The notes under the pieces are model-generated. The model was given only the letters and a program-made list of their open reading frames with translations. It searched no databases and was not told the DNA's origin. A program made the position numbers and the translations under genes. A stretch of DNA of 32,000 nucleotides from Promethearchaeota archaeon (GTDB lineage: Archaea; Asgardarchaeota; Lokiarchaeia; Sigyniarchaeales; SOKP01): assembly GCA_030606485.1 (NCBI GenBank), contig JAUWGH010000001.1, forward strand, positions 840,001-872,000, written 5' to 3'. Of this stretch, positions 22,062 through 29,883 are shown piece by piece. Positions within the stretch are counted from its first letter, which is position 1, and each line of letters starts with the position of its first letter.

Positions 22062-22283
22062 TGAATTTTCCTCAGTTCAATAAACAAAAGAAATTATACG
22101 ATTATTAAATACATCAATTTTTTCTAAAATAATATTTTAACTATATAATAATTATTCGAATTAAAAAAATTATGAGAAAAGACTTGCCAAATTTTTAAAT
22201 TAGAAAATATTTTTTATTTTTTAATCAAAGAAAACTTAAAAATTTTGAATCTTGTTATTTTAATATACGTTTTAAAACTATTT

Positions 22284-22288
22284 GGTGA
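22284..22288 (+). promoter_or_regulatory. Candidate Shine-Dalgarno site of the LMW phosphatase (GGTGA, 6 nt before ATA)
   Basis: tttGGTGActtttaATA; same spacing as the canonical starts in this window. Confidence 0.55.
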
Positions 22289-22294
22289 CTTTTA

Positions 22295-22792
22295 ATAAAA
22301 AAAATTAAAAAAGTGTTATTTTTATGTTATGGAAATTCTTGTAGGTCTCCTGCAGCAGAATATCTAGCAAAAGGTTTAGCAAAAAATAAATATGAAAAGG
22401 ATTTGTTTGATGTGGAATTTGTATCTGCTGGTCTTATTAATGTTTTTGGATATGCTCAGCCAGAAACAGTCAAATTTGCTAAATCTAGAGGAATAAATAT
22501 GTCAAACTTCATACCACAACTAATTGATTATTATCTTCTAGAATTAAATGATTTAATTTTAACTATGGAACAAATACAAGTGAATAAAATCCTTCAACAT
22601 TTTCCGAAAATTCCAAATCTAAAAGCGAAAGTTTTTACCCTAAAATCATTTGCAGGTGAAACTAAAGATGTTGATATCCCAGATCCTTATATGACAACTG
22701 ACGAATATTATAATAAGATATTAGAGGAAATTGAGAAATCCGTAGAATTGAGCATAAAAAGAATAATCGAATTAAATAAAAACCAAACTTGA
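22295..22792 (+). CDS. Low-molecular-weight protein-tyrosine phosphatase / arsenate reductase family
   Basis: P-loop VLFLCYGNSCRSPAAE, SAG, DLILTME and DIPDPY. Proposed ATA start at 22295 (GGTGA-N6); the track starts at GTG 22313, inside beta-strand 1. Confidence 0.9.
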   Translation: MKKIKKVLFLCYGNSCRSPAAEYLAKGLAKNKYEKDLFDVEFVSAGLINVFGYAQPETVKFAKSRGINMSNFIPQLIDYYLLELNDLILTMEQIQVNKILQHFPKIPNLKAKVFTLKSFAGETKDVDIPDPYMTTDEYYNKILEEIEKSVELSIKRIIELNKNQT

Positions 22793-22930
22793 ATTTCAAT
22801 TTTTTTGCGAAATTAAATTATCTCTTAATTTTTTCCGAATCATTTCAAAACTTTTAAATAGTTTCTTTATCCTTACTGTTTTGAATATTCTTTCAAGAAT
22901 ATCGTAAATTAAGAGTTTAAAGTGATTATT

Positions 22931-23701
22931 ATGGGATTAGAGATATGGATGGTTTTTTGGCCTATAATTATAGTTATTGCTGTAATTATTGGAATCTGGT
23001 TTTTAGCGGGGATTAAAGTAATATTGGAATATGAGCGGTTAGTTATATTTCGTTTAGGAAAATACAAACGAACTATTGGTCCAGGAGTAGTATATGTTTT
23101 ACCAATCGTTGAATCTTCACGAAAGGTTGATTTGAGGATTGTAACTCAAGATATTCCTAGGCAGGAAATTATTACAAGAGATAATATTCCAGTTTTAGCA
23201 AATACTGTTGTTTATTTTAAAGTGGAGAGACCAGAAGATGCGGTAATAAAGATTGAGAATTACACCTATGCTGTGCGGCAATACACACAGGCTGCTCTCA
23301 GAGATGTCGTTGGTACTATGGAATTAGATGGTGTATTAACAGAACGAGATAAGATTGCACATGATATTAGAGAGATTGTTGATTCGGAAACAAACGAGTG
23401 GGGAGTTGATATAAAAGCAATAAAAATCCAGGAAATTGAATTACCAGCTGAAATGAAACGAGCCATGGCTAAACAAGCAGAAGCTGAACGTGATAAACGT
23501 GCAGTAATTATTACTTCAGAAGGAGAACTTATGGCTGCAGAAAATCTACAAAAAGCAGCTGCGCTTATGGCATCTGAACCAGGAGCTCTACAGCTTAGGA
23601 CGTTACAAACTATTAGGGATATTGCTCAAGATCCATCCGAAAAAGTTGTTATTTTCATGCCAAGTGGTGTTGAAAAGTTAATCCGGAAATTTACAGATTG
23701 A
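22931..23701 (+). CDS. Stomatin-like SPFH/Band-7 (slipin) membrane protein
   Basis: N-terminal TM, EYERLVIFRLG, VDLR, QEIITRDN, ALRDVVG..ELD..L..R, AMAKQAEAER and ALQLRTLQT. The ATG at 22931 follows AAGTGA; GTG 22922 is the alternative. Confidence 0.95.
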   Translation: MGLEIWMVFWPIIIVIAVIIGIWFLAGIKVILEYERLVIFRLGKYKRTIGPGVVYVLPIVESSRKVDLRIVTQDIPRQEIITRDNIPVLANTVVYFKVERPEDAVIKIENYTYAVRQYTQAALRDVVGTMELDGVLTERDKIAHDIREIVDSETNEWGVDIKAIKIQEIELPAEMKRAMAKQAEAERDKRAVIITSEGELMAAENLQKAAALMASEPGALQLRTLQTIRDIAQDPSEKVVIFMPSGVEKLIRKFTD

Positions 23702-23714
23702 GGGGGATTTTTCA

Positions 23715-24392
23715 CTGAGCACACACCTAATTCCTAACCGTCGTTATATTCAAATAGCATTCAACCATACTACTCAAGAAGTGTGGAGAATAATACGACA
23801 AATACCTCGGGACCCAAGGATAATAATTGAAGCTGGTACTCCATATTGTAAATTAGAGGGAATGGAAGGTGTAAGATTAATTCGAAGATTTTGGAGAGGC
23901 ATGATTGTAGCGGATTTAAAAACAACAGATGGAGCTATAGCAGAAGTAGCATTTGCATATAGAGCGGGGGCAAACGCCGTAACTGCAGCGGGTAGTGCAC
24001 CAGTTGAAACACTTGACTTTTTTACTCAAATCTGTCAGAGATATCAAATTTATTCAATGATTGATATGTTAGGTGTTGATAATCCTCTTAGAAAAGTGAT
24101 GCGTCTAAAAACCAAGCCTGATTTTGTAGTAATTCATAAGGGTAGGGATGAAGAAAGCAATCCCAGAAGCATAATTCGATATAAAGATATTAATAAAGTT
24201 AGATCAAAATTCGATGTATTCATTAGTGTTGCAGGGGGGTTGAAACCTGATAATGTACGAACCGCATACTTTAATGGTGCAGACGTAGCGATTTTAAATA
24301 TAATTAGATCTGGTGAACCAAACGCTGGAATCTATGAAAATGCTAATTTTAGAATTTTAATTCCGAAATTGTTGGATGAAATTGGAAAGTAA
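23715..24392 (+). CDS. 3-hexulose-6-phosphate synthase-like protein (HUMPS/OMPDC barrel), divergent
   Basis: IEAGTP..K.EG, VADLKTTDG, GANAVT, MIDMLG, IHKGRDEE and VAGGL. The frame is open upstream of track start 23781 and includes strand 1 (YIQIAFN); CTG at 23715 is proposed as the start. Confidence 0.8.
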   Translation: MSTHLIPNRRYIQIAFNHTTQEVWRIIRQIPRDPRIIIEAGTPYCKLEGMEGVRLIRRFWRGMIVADLKTTDGAIAEVAFAYRAGANAVTAAGSAPVETLDFFTQICQRYQIYSMIDMLGVDNPLRKVMRLKTKPDFVVIHKGRDEESNPRSIIRYKDINKVRSKFDVFISVAGGLKPDNVRTAYFNGADVAILNIIRSGEPNAGIYENANFRILIPKLLDEIGK

Positions 24393-24532
24393 TCTTAATT
24401 AAAATTAATTTTTCTCTTTTTTTTTATATTTATTTCAAAGATAGATTAAGTTAAACTTATATATTCACTTCAATATTATTAATTCCAATTAAGGAATTTG
24501 AACTGATCCAAAATTTATAATTTAAAACATAA

Positions 24533-24706
24533 ATGAGTGGGCAAATTTCTCAAGAAAACGTCTTGAGAGAAAAATATGTTAAAAAATTGACAGACCAAGA
24601 GAACAAATTCGAAAAAATATCTTCTGAGATAAAAACAATAGATAAAGATCTTGAAGGTTTAAATGATAACATTTCAAAAAAAATGGATAAACTTAGAGTT
24701 AGTTAA
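24533..24706 (+). CDS. Small coiled-coil protein (57 aa), below the ORF-track cutoff
   Basis: ATG...TAA: MSGQISQENVLREKYVKKLTDQENKFEKISSEIKTIDKDLEGLNDNISKKMDKLRVS, with a perfect heptad L19-F26-I33-L40-I47-L54. Confidence 0.6.
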   Translation: MSGQISQENVLREKYVKKLTDQENKFEKISSEIKTIDKDLEGLNDNISKKMDKLRVS

Positions 24707-24898
24707 AAACCGAGAAAAATTTCATAAAAAATATCCTTTTTCTTAATTTTTTCCTTTTAGAAAATTCTTTGAAATTAGATGAATGATAAAATACTTTAAA
24801 AATTAAAGAAATCTCTTTATAAAATTTTTATACTATTGGTTTATAATATATCTTCATAGCAATTTTTTGCAAAAAAAAATTAATTATTATTATTATTT

Positions 24899-24904
24899 GG
24901 GTGA
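24899..24904 (+). promoter_or_regulatory. Candidate Shine-Dalgarno site of acxA (GGGTGA, 6 nt before ATA)
   Basis: The only G-rich island in a very AT-rich leader, with the same spacing as the acxB and acxC SDs. Confidence 0.6.
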
Positions 24905-24910
24905 ACAAAA

Positions 24911-27172
24911 ATATCAACTAAAACTAATAGTGAAATTAAAAAGATTAAGGCTGAAAAAAAGCTAAAGGAATCTAAAATAAAAAAGGAAAAAAAGAAATCT
25001 AAAATAAAAAACGAGAAACAAAAAGATACTTCAGAAATAGAGAAAAAAGAACACTCTTTAAGGGCCATTGCATTAGATACTGGCGGAACAATGAGTGATT
25101 CTTTTGTAATTGACGAAGATGGAACATTTATAATAGGAAAAGCAATTACTACTCCAGAGGATGAATCTGAGGGGATATTAAATTCCGTAAAGGATGCTTT
25201 AAACTACTGGGATAAGACTTTAGAAGACTCAGGGGGATCTGTAGAAGCTTTAGTATATTCTGGAACAACAATGATAAATAGGCTTTTAGAGAGAAAGGGA
25301 AACAGTAATATTGGAATTATAGTTAATGCAGGTTTTGAGGATCTCCACAGATTAGGAAGAGCATTACAATGCTGGATATGGCTCGACTATGCAGGGCGTC
25401 TCCACGCGAGGGAACATGAACACCCCAAACCACTAGTACCAAGGAAACAGATTAAAGGTGTTCGCGGAAGAATTAATTTTTGGGGGGAAGAACTAATTCC
25501 ACTTTATAAGGATGAGGCAAGAGTAGCAGTAGAAGAATTACTTGATATGGGTGTTGAAAGTATTTGTGTATGCTTACTTTGTTCCTATATGAATCCGGCT
25601 CATGAAAAACGTGTGAAAAGGATTGCAGAACGGATAATGAAGGAAAAAGGTAAAAAAATTCCAATAATATTATCTTGTGAACATAATCCGGTTAGAGGTG
25701 AAACTCCTAGATTAAATGCTCTTATCATTGAACAATATGCTGCAGAACCATCAAGAAAATTGTTAGCTAAAATTGCCGAAACTTTTAAAGAAAAACAAGT
25801 TCCCGCGCCTCTTAGAATCTTAACAACTTATGGAGGAACAATTTCACCGTATCACAAACAACTCATCACAACCCTAGTATCAGGTCCTATCGGTGGAATA
25901 ATAGGTAGTAAATTCATAGCCAAGGAATATGGAATAAAGAACTTAGTATCCTCAGATGTAGGGGGTACCAGTTTCGATGTAGGTCTTATAATGGAAAATT
26001 ATGTTCCTACCAAATGGGAGAGTTCTGTTGGAAAATTCATTTTAAACATACCCATGATAGGTTTAAACTCTATAGGTGCAGGTACGGGCATGTATGTGAG
26101 ATATAATAAAGTTTCAGGAAGATTAGAATTTGGACCTGAAAGTGCAGGGTATCGTATCGGAGTATGTAATGAGGCATCTGGAGTTGAAACAGTCACAATG
26201 ACGGATTGTAGTTTAATTTTGGGATATCTCAATCCAGACTATTTTCTCGGAGGAAATATTCCATTAGACAAGAAGCGAGCATATAAATATATCAAAGAAC
26301 AGTTGGCAGACCCTTTTGGTGTGGATCCGGAAAGAACTGCACGAGGTGCACTTGATTTAATAGAGATTAACATGAAAAATCATCTTAATGGAATGATTCA
26401 AGGTCTTGGTTTCAGACCAGAGAACTATACACTCATCTCCTTCGGAGGAGCTGGGCCACTTCATGTGGCAGGATATGCTAAGGAGTTAAAGTTTCAAAAT
26501 ATTATGATACCAGAATGGGCAGCTGCGTTCTCAGCGTATGGTTGTGCATGTGCCGATCATTCTTACAGACATGAAAAGTCTGTGGATTTATTGGTATCTC
26601 CTGATGGGAGCATGAATGAAATTGTATCTATGATGCTCAACGCTACGTGGAGTGAATTAAAAAAGAATATAATAAAAGAGTTTGAAAAAGAGGATAGAGA
26701 TCCTAGTGAAATGGAATTTATTCCCTCAATTCGAATACAATATTTTGGCATGTTTGATGATTTAGAAGTAAAGAGTTCATCTGATAATCTTAAAGCCGAA
26801 GATGTGTGGAAACTGGCAAGAAGTTATGATGATCTTTTCGAACAAATATTTCGAAGAGGTACAAAAAGCCCAGATCTTGGATATCATATAACCAAGGCGG
26901 TGGCAACAGGGATTGTCCCAGTTCCTAAGCCAAAATTACCAGATTATAAGTTGAGTGGGAAGGATCCGGACAAAGGAGCAAATAAAGGAAAGAGAAAAAT
27001 ATTCTGGGAAGCTGATTGGCATAATGCTTCACTTTGGGAGATGAGTTTACTTAATCCTGGAAATTTAATAGATGGTCCCGCAGTTATCGAGGCTCCGGCA
27101 ACCACTTTACTGGTTCCACCAGGTTTTAAAGTTTTTCTTGATAAACATAGAATTTTTCATATGGAGGTGTAA
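24911..27172 (+). CDS. acxA: Acetone carboxylase beta subunit (hydantoinase A/ASKHA ATPase)
   Basis: ALDTGGTMSD, SDVGGTSFDVG, IGAGTG, GPESAGYRIG, FGGAGPLH and PEWAAAFSAYG. The track ATG (25091) lies inside the DxGGT motif, so the start must be upstream; ATA at 24911 (GGTGA-N6) is proposed. Confidence 0.88.
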   Translation: MSTKTNSEIKKIKAEKKLKESKIKKEKKKSKIKNEKQKDTSEIEKKEHSLRAIALDTGGTMSDSFVIDEDGTFIIGKAITTPEDESEGILNSVKDALNYWDKTLEDSGGSVEALVYSGTTMINRLLERKGNSNIGIIVNAGFEDLHRLGRALQCWIWLDYAGRLHAREHEHPKPLVPRKQIKGVRGRINFWGEELIPLYKDEARVAVEELLDMGVESICVCLLCSYMNPAHEKRVKRIAERIMKEKGKKIPIILSCEHNPVRGETPRLNALIIEQYAAEPSRKLLAKIAETFKEKQVPAPLRILTTYGGTISPYHKQLITTLVSGPIGGIIGSKFIAKEYGIKNLVSSDVGGTSFDVGLIMENYVPTKWESSVGKFILNIPMIGLNSIGAGTGMYVRYNKVSGRLEFGPESAGYRIGVCNEASGVETVTMTDCSLILGYLNPDYFLGGNIPLDKKRAYKYIKEQLADPFGVDPERTARGALDLIEINMKNHLNGMIQGLGFRPENYTLISFGGAGPLHVAGYAKELKFQNIMIPEWAAAFSAYGCACADHSYRHEKSVDLLVSPDGSMNEIVSMMLNATWSELKKNIIKEFEKEDRDPSEMEFIPSIRIQYFGMFDDLEVKSSSDNLKAEDVWKLARSYDDLFEQIFRRGTKSPDLGYHITKAVATGIVPVPKPKLPDYKLSGKDPDKGANKGKRKIFWEADWHNASLWEMSLLNPGNLIDGPAVIEAPATTLLVPPGFKVFLDKHRIFHMEV
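24968..25021 (+). repeat. Imperfect 27-nt tandem duplication encoding ESKIKKEKK / KSKIKNEKQ
   Basis: gaatctaaaataaaaaaggaaaaaaag (24968-24994) versus aaatctaaaataaaaaacgagaaacaa (24995-25021): 22 of 27 nt identical and in frame with acxA. Confidence 0.75.
27163..27170 (+). promoter_or_regulatory. Shine-Dalgarno site of acxB (GGAGGTGT, 6 nt before ATG)
   Basis: Read directly; lies inside the last codons of acxA, consistent with translational coupling. Confidence 0.8.
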
Positions 27173-27176
27173 AGAA

Positions 27177-29393
27177 ATGAATAATAAACCAATTGGATGG
27201 AATGGAAAAACACTTATGAAAATGCTTGAAGAAAGCGAGAAATATATAAAGGAAACAAAATCATATTATGGAATAGATAAATTAAAGTTAAAGGAAGAAG
27301 ACCCTTTTAAATATGAACGAGCATTTGCAAGTCTTAGAGGTGCATTAGTTTCTGCAAGAGAAACTGCATTACATGTTGCCGCTTCACCTATTGTTAAAGA
27401 AATTGGTGAGCTCTGCTTTGCTTTATATACTCCAGAAGGTGATTCTATTGTCGTTTCGACTGGTATCTTGGTTCATGTCCATACAATGAGCGAAGCCGTA
27501 AAATTTATGGTAAAACAGGATTATGAACAAGACCCTGGAATCAACCTAGGTGATATTTTTCTAAATAACGACCCCGAATGCGGAAATGTGCATACAACAG
27601 ATGTTCAGACTCTAATCCCAATATTCTGGAAGGAAGAATTGATTGGCTGGGCGGGAGGTGTAACTCATCAAATCGATTCTGGAGGTATTACTCCTGGTCA
27701 TGATTTAGTTTCAGCTATTCAACGTTTTGATGATGGAACCTATTATACTTGTAGAAAGATTGGCTCAAACGATAAGATCTGGAAAGACCACATGATAAAT
27801 GCTCGAAGATCAGTTAGAACTCCATTTTATTGGGAGTTAGACGAAAAATGCAGATTAGCGGGAGATTTGATGATTCGAGATGCAGTTCTAGAGTTTATAG
27901 AGAGAGAAGGAATTGAATATTATAAACAATTTATAAGAGAGGTAATAGAGGAGGGAAGAAGGATATTTCAAGAACGTGTGAAAGAGCGATTGATTCCTGG
28001 AAGATATAGAGCTGCAGCCTTCTTTGATATACCTATGAAGGAAGAAGCCTGGCAACCTAGAGCAAAAATTGATAAGATCAGCAATCAACCATTAGAAATT
28101 ATTATTAAAAATGATGGATCAATGTTTCTTTCTTTTGATGGAGCAAGTGGTCCCGGACCAAATCCTATGAATTGTGCAAAAGGAGCAATGGAAGGAGGCC
28201 AGTGGGTTCTTTTGACCCAAGTCTTAATATACGGTGATAAAGTTAATGATGGGGCGTATTTTGCTGTAGATACGGATTATCCAATTGGGACATGGTGTAA
28301 TCCAGGGGATTCTTCTCTTTCTTATCAGAGTCCTTGGGGTAACTTGATTCCTGCCTACACAGGTATGATGAAATGTCTATCTTATGGATTATATTCCCGT
28401 GGATATAGAGAAGAAATCGTTCCGGGGTATGGATTTACAGGAGATGCAATTCAAGGTGGAGGTATTTATTCAGCTGGTCCACTTAAAGGGCAAAGGTGGT
28501 CATTATCAACATTTGAGATTAGCGGTCAAGGGTTAGGAGCGAGTGGCGTAAAAGACGGACTGGATTGGGGGTATGCAATGTGGAATCCAGAGGCTGACCT
28601 TGGAGATGTTGAAACATGGGAACTATTTCAAGGAGGAATTCCTTATTTATCAAGAAGAGTTAAACCAAATACCGCAGGTCATGGAAAATACCGGGGTGGA
28701 GCGAATTATGAAGGAGTGGCAATGATTGCAAATTCGAAAGAAGTGGATTTTTTTGGAGCTAGGGATGGTTATTGTTTTCATGGTTCTGGTGGTATGCACG
28801 GGGGTTATCCTCATGCAACTGGATATCGACTTTATGCTAAAAAGACAAATCTACAAGAGATTATTCAAAATCAAAAAGAATATCCATTAGGAGATCCAGA
28901 CCCTAGCAATGGTGAATTTGAGAAATTACTAGAGGGAGATATTGTGAGAAAGAAGAACTGCACAATCTATCCTATCATCTTGGAGAATAACGATATGATT
29001 TATTATGCATTAAGTGGGGGTCCAGGATACGGTGATCCTCTAGAGAGAAAGGTGGAGAGTGTAAAACAAGACCTTAATAATGGAATTTACACAAATGATT
29101 TAGTCTATAATATTTATGGTGTAGTAGCAGAATATAATGAAGAAATGGGAGAGTGGGTAATCGACAAAATGGGCACAGACGTACGTCGAGAAGAAATTAG
29201 AGCGGAACGAAAAGATAAATCCTTGACATTTGATGATTATTGGGAACAAGAACGGTGGAAAATTACAGAAGATATGCTGAGTGAACCGGTAAAACGAATG
29301 TATTCAGAGAGTTTAAGATTATCTACAAAATGGAGAAAGGAATTCCTAGAATTTTGGAGATTACCCGAGGATTTCCAACTGGAGGTGAAATAA
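27177..29393 (+). CDS. acxB: Acetone carboxylase alpha subunit (hydantoinase B family)
   Basis: ARETA..AASPIV.E.GELCF, NNDP..GNVHTTD and GWAGGVTH align with the Xanthobacter Mn-ligand motifs. True start is the ATG at 27177 after GGAGGTG; the track's 27072 start overlaps acxA. Confidence 0.92.
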   Translation: MNNKPIGWNGKTLMKMLEESEKYIKETKSYYGIDKLKLKEEDPFKYERAFASLRGALVSARETALHVAASPIVKEIGELCFALYTPEGDSIVVSTGILVHVHTMSEAVKFMVKQDYEQDPGINLGDIFLNNDPECGNVHTTDVQTLIPIFWKEELIGWAGGVTHQIDSGGITPGHDLVSAIQRFDDGTYYTCRKIGSNDKIWKDHMINARRSVRTPFYWELDEKCRLAGDLMIRDAVLEFIEREGIEYYKQFIREVIEEGRRIFQERVKERLIPGRYRAAAFFDIPMKEEAWQPRAKIDKISNQPLEIIIKNDGSMFLSFDGASGPGPNPMNCAKGAMEGGQWVLLTQVLIYGDKVNDGAYFAVDTDYPIGTWCNPGDSSLSYQSPWGNLIPAYTGMMKCLSYGLYSRGYREEIVPGYGFTGDAIQGGGIYSAGPLKGQRWSLSTFEISGQGLGASGVKDGLDWGYAMWNPEADLGDVETWELFQGGIPYLSRRVKPNTAGHGKYRGGANYEGVAMIANSKEVDFFGARDGYCFHGSGGMHGGYPHATGYRLYAKKTNLQEIIQNQKEYPLGDPDPSNGEFEKLLEGDIVRKKNCTIYPIILENNDMIYYALSGGPGYGDPLERKVESVKQDLNNGIYTNDLVYNIYGVVAEYNEEMGEWVIDKMGTDVRREEIRAERKDKSLTFDDYWEQERWKITEDMLSEPVKRMYSESLRLSTKWRKEFLEFWRLPEDFQLEVK
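29381..29388 (+). promoter_or_regulatory. Shine-Dalgarno site of acxC (GGAGGTGA, 6 nt before ATG)
   Basis: Perfect archaeal SD inside the last codons of acxB. Confidence 0.85.
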
Positions 29394-29394
29394 A

Positions 29395-29883
29395 ATGGTA
29401 AAATATGATAAAAAGACACTTAAAAGAATGATTGATGGGGATTTAACTTGGGAAGAATTAAAACCAATAATAAGTGGTACAAAGGATCCTGATAGATTTG
29501 ATAAAATTATTGAAATTTTACAAGAAAAAGTCTCTTGGGACGAAAAAATCATCTTACCAATTCATGAACATTTACATATTGTTTCAAAGGATGGAAAGAG
29601 AATAGTAAAATGTGATTGTGGATATGAGTTTGGAGATTATAAAGAGAACTGGAAGAAAAAATGCAGAATAAGAGTGAGAGATACAGCTGAAGAGCTTGAA
29701 GAATTTTATCCAAAATATATGTCTTGTGACCCAGATTGGGAGGAACTTAGAGAATATTTCTGTCCTGGTTGTTTTACACTGCTAGATACGGAAGCTGTAC
29801 CTCCAGGATATCCAACTATTTTCAATTTTCTGCCCGACATAGATGCATTCTACAAAGAGTGGCTTGGAAGAAAGGCTCCATAA
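29395..29883 (+). CDS. acxC: Acetone carboxylase gamma subunit
   Basis: LPIHEHL, Zn motifs KCDCG and YFCPGC, YKENWK, PPGYP and PDIDAFYKEWLG. SD GGAGGTGA-N6-ATG. Confidence 0.93.
   Translation: MVKYDKKTLKRMIDGDLTWEELKPIISGTKDPDRFDKIIEILQEKVSWDEKIILPIHEHLHIVSKDGKRIVKCDCGYEFGDYKENWKKKCRIRVRDTAEELEEFYPKYMSCDPDWEELREYFCPGCFTLLDTEAVPPGYPTIFNFLPDIDAFYKEWLGRKAP

Follow-up and report, generated by a model that had tools for sequence, protein, structure and literature searches.

Introduction

Several genetic systems are known to initiate translation at near-cognate codons. In bacteria, E. coli infC and pcnB start at AUU, and NCBI translation table 11 lists ATT, ATC, ATA and CTG; vertebrate mitochondria initiate at AUA and AUU with a tRNA-Met that carries f5C34, and eukaryotic near-cognate initiation (CUG, GUG, ACG, AUU) is policed by eIF1 and eIF5. 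Here we analyze a 32,000-nt stretch of a Promethearchaeota archaeon genome (contig JAUWGH010000001.1, positions 840,001 to 872,000 of the forward strand; hereafter the window), in which two genes, encoding a low-molecular-weight (LMW) phosphotyrosine phosphatase and AcxA, a hydantoinase A/acetone carboxylase beta-type subunit, appear to start at ATA codons that follow the Shine-Dalgarno (SD) sequence GGTGA by 6 nt. The source genome comprises 3.75 Mb in 13 contigs, with 29% G+C. From sequence comparisons we judge it very likely that ATA 24911 (acxA) and, very probably, ATA 22295 (phosphatase) are translation starts, and that such starts are a habit of this genome and its family.

The likeness to the bacterial cases lies in an SD-led codon that differs from AUG by one mismatch, that the normal initiator tRNA presumably reads and that gene callers restricted to ATG, GTG and TTG miss. 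Those cases concern isolated genes in cells with IF3, whereas roughly 5% of genes, including that for ribosomal protein eS4, seem to be involved here, alongside aIF1, aIF1A and aIF2. The product of infC is a fidelity factor; those of the two genes studied here are a phosphatase and a subunit of a carboxylase, which do not fit the autoregulated type. AUA and AUU serve as starts in vertebrate mitochondria as well, but ATA is not reassigned here. Eukaryotic near-cognate initiation shares with this genome the use of codons that are AUG minus one mismatch, and aIF1, the homolog of eIF1, is present and conserved; where eukaryotes rely on scanning and Kozak context, however, an SD duplex at fixed spacing would act here.

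In ribosome profiling of Haloferax volcanii, near-cognate codons made up about 30% of the alternative sites defined with harringtonine (Gelsinger et al. 2020, PMC7261190); these sites were alternative or internal and were set aside by the authors as possible false positives (PMC7261190). They provide an experimental hint of archaeal near-cognate initiation, but in our case conserved genes would have the near-cognate codon as their primary start, with no other plausible candidate. A 2020 review of archaeal initiation considers AUG, GUG and UUG only, and notes that SDs were scarce in the only genome of a cultured Lokiarchaeon available at the time (PMC7531240). In the literature on Asgard and lokiarchaeal start codons we found no published report on such starts. 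With SD-led near-cognate initiation already known, what is unusual here is its frequency, the archaeal host and the effect on Asgard annotation.

Two ATA codons in Shine-Dalgarno register

The two sites and their genes comprise the following features.

22284..22288, plus strand: Shine-Dalgarno GGTGA of the phosphatase gene; pairs with UCACC of the 16S 3' end, lies 6 nt 5' of ATA 22295, unchanged in four congeneric species
22295..22297, plus strand: ATA, proposed start of the LMW phosphotyrosine phosphatase; aligned to ATG/GTG/TTG of about 25 homologs
22313..22315, plus strand: in-frame GTG, gene-caller start of the phosphatase and possible secondary start; position 1 of the Pfam LMWPc profile, no SD in register
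22295..22792, plus strand: proposed LMW phosphotyrosine phosphatase coding sequence, 165 aa; CX5R motif CYGNSCRS, DPY loop
24900..24904, plus strand: Shine-Dalgarno GGTGA of acxA (context GGGTGA), 6 nt 5' of ATA 24911
24911..24913, plus strand: ATA, proposed start of the AcxA-type hydantoinase A subunit; sole codon of the 60-codon head with an SD in register
24914..25066, plus strand: K/E-rich, low-complexity N-terminal extension of about 50 aa
24911..27172, plus strand: proposed hydantoinase A/acetone carboxylase beta-type coding sequence, 753 aa

Both sites (22284-22297 and 24900-24913) read as the first-pass annotation, which had singled them out as apparent AUA starts, described them: the spacer is cttta+a (6 nt) between GGTGA 22284-88 and ATA 22295-97, and acaaaa between GGTGA 24900-04 and ATA 24911-13. 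The TGA inside each GGTGA is indeed the in-frame stop, an automatic consequence of the 6-nt spacing. The 3' end of the 16S rRNA is GGATCACCTCCT (also given as ...GGAUCACCUCCU) and is complementary to GGTGA, which identifies GGTGA as a true SD core, and canonical starts peak at the same SD register as the two ATA sites. The three canonical comparators that had been put forward for the window, GGTGT-N6-ATG 27177, GGTGA-N6-ATG 29395 and, on the minus strand, GGTGT-N6-GTG 13746, are correct, but the exact 6-nt rule drawn from them does not extend to the genome, whose canonical starts span N5-N8.

In acxA, the frame between 24905 and 25090 is devoid of ATG, GTG and TTG, as had been claimed, and the first canonical start, ATG 25091, falls inside the DTGGT-M segment. 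Counted from ATA 24911, residue 53 opens the Hydant_A_N domain and residue 61 corresponds to the first ATG, so that a canonical start deletes the first conserved strand. The head has the look of translated sequence: it contains 0 stops in its own frame, the other two frames contain 6 and 9, and a 60-codon head stayed open in only 18 of 5000 dinucleotide shuffles. Nine acxA loci (six distinct sequences, from genomes of the genus, g1, and from related metagenome contigs in NCBI, JGI, ENA and Logan) retain an invariant GGTGA and a conserved ATA, the spacer carries a single substitution in one of the six distinct sequences, and the 57-codon head is free of indels in all nine despite its A6-A8 runs, whereas the 60 nt of noncoding DNA directly upstream of the site hold two indels among the compared loci.

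This pattern also bears on the idea that translation begins at another near-cognate codon within the acxA head (for example ATT 25067, just 5' of the DTGGT strand) and that the K/E-rich part is a 5' leader. In favor of this, the extension is of low complexity and evolves quickly, and the DTGGT strand of other genera is preceded by 13-20 residues only. However, SDs in register are lacking at all internal ATA and ATT codons, and the strong SD at 24900 stands alone; the head stays open and indel-free in the nine loci, whereas the noncoding DNA upstream of it shows indels; and a start at ATT 25067 would leave merely two residues ahead of the first conserved strand. We therefore consider an internal start quite improbable, and ATA 24911 highly likely to be the start codon of AcxA.

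For the phosphatase, the family assignment is supported by a match to PF01451 (3.9e-25) and by the CYGNSCRS P-loop and DIPDPY acid loop in the translation. About 25 homologs open with M-x-K-I-K-x-V-L-F-x-C, and their ATG, GTG or TTG falls on ATA 22295. The Val encoded by GTG 22313 corresponds to GTT, GTC, GTA or ATY in most of them, and the site does not differ among four species whose proteins share 70-92% identity. The proposal that this gene has the normal N-terminus of its family when started at ATA thus holds as far as the shared K-I-K lead is concerned, but the canonical GTG six codons downstream means that ATA is not strictly required. On domain evidence alone the phosphatase is ambiguous; the conserved K-I-K lead and the mostly non-GTG Val codons of the homologs tip it towards ATA 22295, which we regard as its probable start codon.

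Alternatively, the phosphatase might start at GTG 22313 and AcxA at ATG 25091, each being the next canonical codon, with GGTGA-N6-ATA as part of a chance-open untranslated leader. These are the starts of the public gene calls; in addition, the LMWPc domain begins at the GTG codon and AT-rich leaders can remain open over a few codons. For AcxA, however, ATG 25091 lies past the DxGGT strand, with Hydant_A_N beginning 8 residues earlier, and the shuffles seldom produce so long an open head. For the phosphatase, GTG 22313 is not preceded by an SD, and the homologs both keep the K-I-K lead, with starts that align with ATA, and usually have GTT, GTC, GTA or ATY at the Val position. A downstream start is also at odds with the 12-fold excess of SD-registered ATA and ATT across the genome, described below, and we regard it as unlikely for these genes.

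The runs of A that adjoin both ATA codons raise the concern that one surplus A per run, introduced by homopolymer or assembly error, conceals GTG-led frames starting inside GGTGA, where the GTG of the motif lies 10 nt upstream and one base out of frame. The first-pass annotation had named such indels as the finding that would undo it, and independent assemblies are without an indel at either site. A 12-kb contig of another study covers 22200-25200; it has no indel at the phosphatase site and an equal length of 129 nt across the acxA site, judged by length only because 24869-24997 is masked as repetitive. Lengths are likewise constant in the JGI, ENA, NCBI and Logan contigs and in the congeneric species compared, of which there were three for acxA and four for the phosphatase. 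A GTG start would moreover leave both genes without an SD, dozens of ATA, ATT and ATC cases elsewhere have non-homopolymer spacers, and the eS4 and GHMP-like genes align codon for codon with the ATG of their orthologs. Given the conserved lengths and intact heads, we reject the homopolymer explanation as most improbable.

Genome-wide enrichment of SD-led ATA and ATT

If the two sites reflected routine AUA initiation, as had been suggested, GGTGA-N6-ATA should recur in front of other open reading frames (ORFs). Since GGTGA itself supplies an in-frame TGA at N6 and an in-frame GTG at N5 and N8, we used xxTGA-N6 controls that keep TGA fixed. ORFs of at least 100 codons follow 9 of the 89 occurrences of GGTGA-N6-ATA compared with 32 of the 3464 of xxTGA-N6-ATA (odds ratio 12, p=4.7e-7), which bears out the predicted enrichment over matched controls; for ATT the counts are 6/104 and 68/4860. 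GGTGA-N6 followed by AAT, TTA, TAT, GAA, AAG or AGA yielded 0 ORFs of at least 100 codons for each codon. Within the GGTGA-N6 set, ATA and ATT together reach 15/193, versus 4/756 for eight control codons (p=4.7e-8).

A second test was confined to stretches from an upstream stop to the first canonical start, and counted codons at least 10 codons before that start that have a 5-mer SD at register 7. ATA (11) and ATT (12) account for 23/1938, versus 15/14779 for all other codons (p=7e-13). Behind GGTG[AT] at N5-N7, a count that disregards the GTG inside the SD, 53 ORFs are led by ATA, ATT or ATC (ATH), 57 by ATG and 29 by GTG or TTG, while six abundant control codons total 17; about one third of the starts behind strong GGTG[AT] SDs would thus be ATH. 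Dozens of these further ATA, ATT and ATC cases have varied spacers free of homopolymers. Second-position variants (ACG, AAG) showed no enrichment that stood out in the genome-wide scans. A narrower spacing for ATH than for ATG had also been considered, and was dropped under a fairer filter (ATH N5:17, N6:26, N7:10).

Domains and orthologs of other candidates

Twenty candidates were scanned against Pfam, with residues counted from the proposed start. In the proteins below, listed together with AcxA, a Pfam domain starts ahead of the first canonical codon; in all but AcxA it starts only a few residues after the ATA or ATT and well before that codon.

AcxA: Hydant_A_N from residue 53; first canonical codon 61
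eS4: RS4NT at residues 5-38; first canonical codon 49
SDR: adh_short from residue 6; first canonical codon 48
ETF-alpha: domain from residue 14; first canonical codon 32
Ras GTPase: domain from residue 7; first canonical codon 21
Arf-like GTPase: domain from residue 12; first canonical codon 42
TetR: helix-turn-helix (HTH) from residue 18; first canonical codon 36

In eS4, RS4NT precedes the first canonical start, as does the P-loop in the Ras-family GTPase. Among the checks made on the candidates, ortholog alignments give the strongest evidence, and they bore out the expectation that relatives would have ATG, GTG or TTG at the codon that is ATA, ATT, ATC or CTG here. The eS4 gene has ATA in the source genome and two congeners, and ATG at that codon in a further congener (G001) and about 23 more distant relatives. 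The GHMP-like gene, led by GGTGA-N7-ATC, has ATG or TTG at that codon in 21 of 25 more distant orthologs, and the ATT of the Arf-like GTPase corresponds to M in a relative that is >90% identical and equal in length. In the OMP-decarboxylase (OMPdecase)-family gene of the window, Pfam OMPdecase begins at residue 12 and the first canonical codon, GTG 23781, is residue 23, 11 codons later; six orthologs have ATG at the codon that is CTG 23715 here, and another genome (G011) has GGTGA-N7-CTG.

For ETF-alpha, the orthologs of other genera are longer and of paralogous architecture, and offer no codon-level comparison for ATA. The ETF-alpha homologs in other genera (L101-L114) are ORFs of 399-421 aa, about 60 residues longer at the N-terminus; those of genus g1 (L097-L100) measure 338 aa from ATA, and the source genome has a long paralog on contig C12 as well. 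On the minus strand of contig C5, two overlapping ATT-led frames 123 nt apart (reverse-strand offsets ~135521 and 135644) encode pieces of an ERCC4/XPF-like nuclease, first an IIVDKRE-like piece and then a VERK..D piece; this pair may represent a frameshift, a mini-intron or a broken gene.

Prevalence in the genome and its family

The count took in 2329 non-overlapping ORFs that reach 200 codons or more; in 83 of them at least 30 codons precede any canonical start, versus 42 expected from a geometric fit. A canonical-free stretch of such length follows only 37% of true starts, and the corrected total is ~111/2329, or 4.8%. By this rough estimate, SD-led ATA, ATT, ATC or CTG starts would serve some 5% of genes, a figure that rests on the geometric null and that pseudogenes or mRNA introns could inflate. 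The suggestion of routine AUA initiation is accordingly upheld in that such starts occur genome-wide, but they concern about 5% of genes rather than most, and ATT, ATC and CTG are used too.

Comparison with related genomes relied on samples of ~400 kb per genome and has low power. Long canonical-free heads (at least 30 codons) make up the following fractions in the family of the source genome (f1) and in a second family (f2).

Source genome, f1: 3.9%
G022, f1: 4.6%
G020, f1: 4.5%
G038, f2: 1.1%
G032, f2: 2.1%

Such heads are two to four times commoner in the f1 samples (G022, G020) than in those of f2 (G038, G032). Enrichment of SD plus ATH was significant in the G022 sample (4/147 vs 3/1062), where the SD-registered ATH matches include an SMC/Rad50-like N-terminus and a GTPase P-loop, and was not significant in the low-power samples of G020, G038 and G032. 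The habit of non-canonical starts seems to be common at least to family f1, and may have a datable origin within the order.

Weighing the proposed starts

Several observations besides the limits of the 5% estimate count against the starts proposed here. No AcxA ortholog was found with a canonical start at the codon equivalent to ATA 24911, and the extension occurs only in genus g1 among the genomes searched. A homolog search with AcxA residues 1-130 returned no relative in which M aligns with ATA; its matches were limited to a fragment at a contig edge and to truncated calls, 693 and 699 aa long; the orthologs have shorter N-termini, and one genome (G016) has GGTGA-N6-TTG. The Pfam LMWPc domain of the phosphatase begins at residue 7, which is the in-frame GTG 22313, so that a GTG start leaves the catalytic domain complete and would cost the protein only the conserved K-I-K lead. 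SD dependence is partly built into the genome-wide result, because candidates were selected for having an SD. Finally, the initiator tRNA and aIF1 look ordinary, and the machinery gives no explanation for the tolerance of this lineage.

A possible initiation mechanism

In the mechanism that we propose, an SD duplex with the 16S 3' end would bring the codon that lies 6 nt beyond it into the P site, where the ordinary initiator tRNA (CAU) would read AUA despite the third-position mismatch and insert Met; at CTG starts, Met-tRNAi would pair with a first-position mismatch. SD anchoring would compensate for the codon mismatch, and ATA, ATT, ATC and CTG would act as SD-led starts for ~5% of genes, eS4 included, across this Lokiarchaeia-type family. 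The genome encodes one initiator-type tRNA (C6:44349-44448, minus strand) with a CAU anticodon, A1:U72, a GGG/CCC stem and an encoded CCA; its gene contains a 21-nt intron beside the anticodon loop. A second initiator tRNA was not found. ARAGORN detected few tRNAs without its intron mode and missed many even with introns allowed.

Reassignment of ATA to Met, as in mitochondria, was considered and rejected: ATA is a common Ile codon, numbering 9574 versus 5871 for ATG in ORF heads, and where the K-I-K lead has its conserved Ile, ATA, ATT and ATC replace one another.

An alignment of aIF1 over 30 genomes found it present and conserved, with no family-specific loss or obvious change. In 13 f1 genomes that do not belong to genus g1, the stretch of the aIF1 (SUI1) gene from an in-frame stop to the zinc-knuckle Cys is free of ATG, GTG and TTG (loci L202, L204-L206, L208-L210, L214, L220-L223 and L225); it does contain a conserved ATT or ATC, 6 codons ahead of that Cys. 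The aIF1 genes of two f2 genomes (L216, L218) have ATA only; that of the source genome (L096) has an in-frame GTG. This pattern hints at autocontrol of the infC or eIF1 kind, in the sister genera only, the source genome having GTG. Because the aIF1 gene lacks a canonical start in the 13 sister-genus genomes, near-cognate starts could be coupled to aIF1 levels: we tentatively suggest, as a possibility that we hold to be rather unlikely, a lineage-specific relaxation of start selection, through a modified initiator C34 or lowered aIF1 stringency, with near-cognate starts forming a tunable, aIF1-coupled layer of expression.

Genes around the two sites

The remaining genes of the region are as follows.

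22922..23701, plus strand: SPFH/Band 7 gene, canonically started (GTG/ATG); neighbor outside the phenomenon
23700..23706, plus strand: SD-like GAGGGGG, 8 nt 5' of CTG 23715
23715..23717, plus strand: CTG, proposed start of the OMP-decarboxylase/HUMPS-family gene, from the Pfam OMPdecase start and the ATG of orthologs
23715..24392, plus strand: proposed OMPdecase-family coding sequence, 225 aa
27166..29393, plus strand: GGTGT-N6-ATG and Hydantoinase_B subunit gene, canonical comparator
29384..29883, plus strand: GGTGA-N6-ATG and acetone carboxylase gamma subunit gene, canonical comparator

Of the four genes that lie within 22295-27172, three appear to use non-canonical starts. The acxA product contains Hydant_A_N, Hydantoinase_A and Hydant_A_C domains, and Hydantoinase_B and Acetone_carb_G genes follow downstream, which points to a three-subunit enzyme of the acetone carboxylase type. 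AcxA homologs are annotated as acetone carboxylase beta subunit or as hydantoinase/oxoprolinase, and the three genes match a predicted acetone carboxylase/hydantoinase-oxoprolinase complex. An Rfam scan of the whole window matched zero families.

Consequences for Asgard annotation

Callers restricted to ATG, GTG and TTG truncate proteins with non-canonical starts at the N-terminus. The truncation that had been predicted for annotations of this lineage is visible in public protein sets, where six proteins cut to the first downstream ATG are present letter for letter. Public truncated calls comprise AcxA (693 aa, from M61), the SDR (211 aa, without its Rossmann loop) and the Arf-like GTPase (without its P-loop). 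Asgard genomes are mined for eukaryote-like proteins, and nearly all of their annotations come from callers that accept only ATG, GTG and TTG. If the figure of ~5% is true, many public Asgard proteins would lack N-terminal motifs or whole N-terminal domains, and domain inventories, structure predictions and phylogenies of Asgard proteins would be affected. Should near-cognate starts indeed be coupled to aIF1, they would constitute a prokaryotic counterpart of eIF1-controlled eukaryotic initiation.

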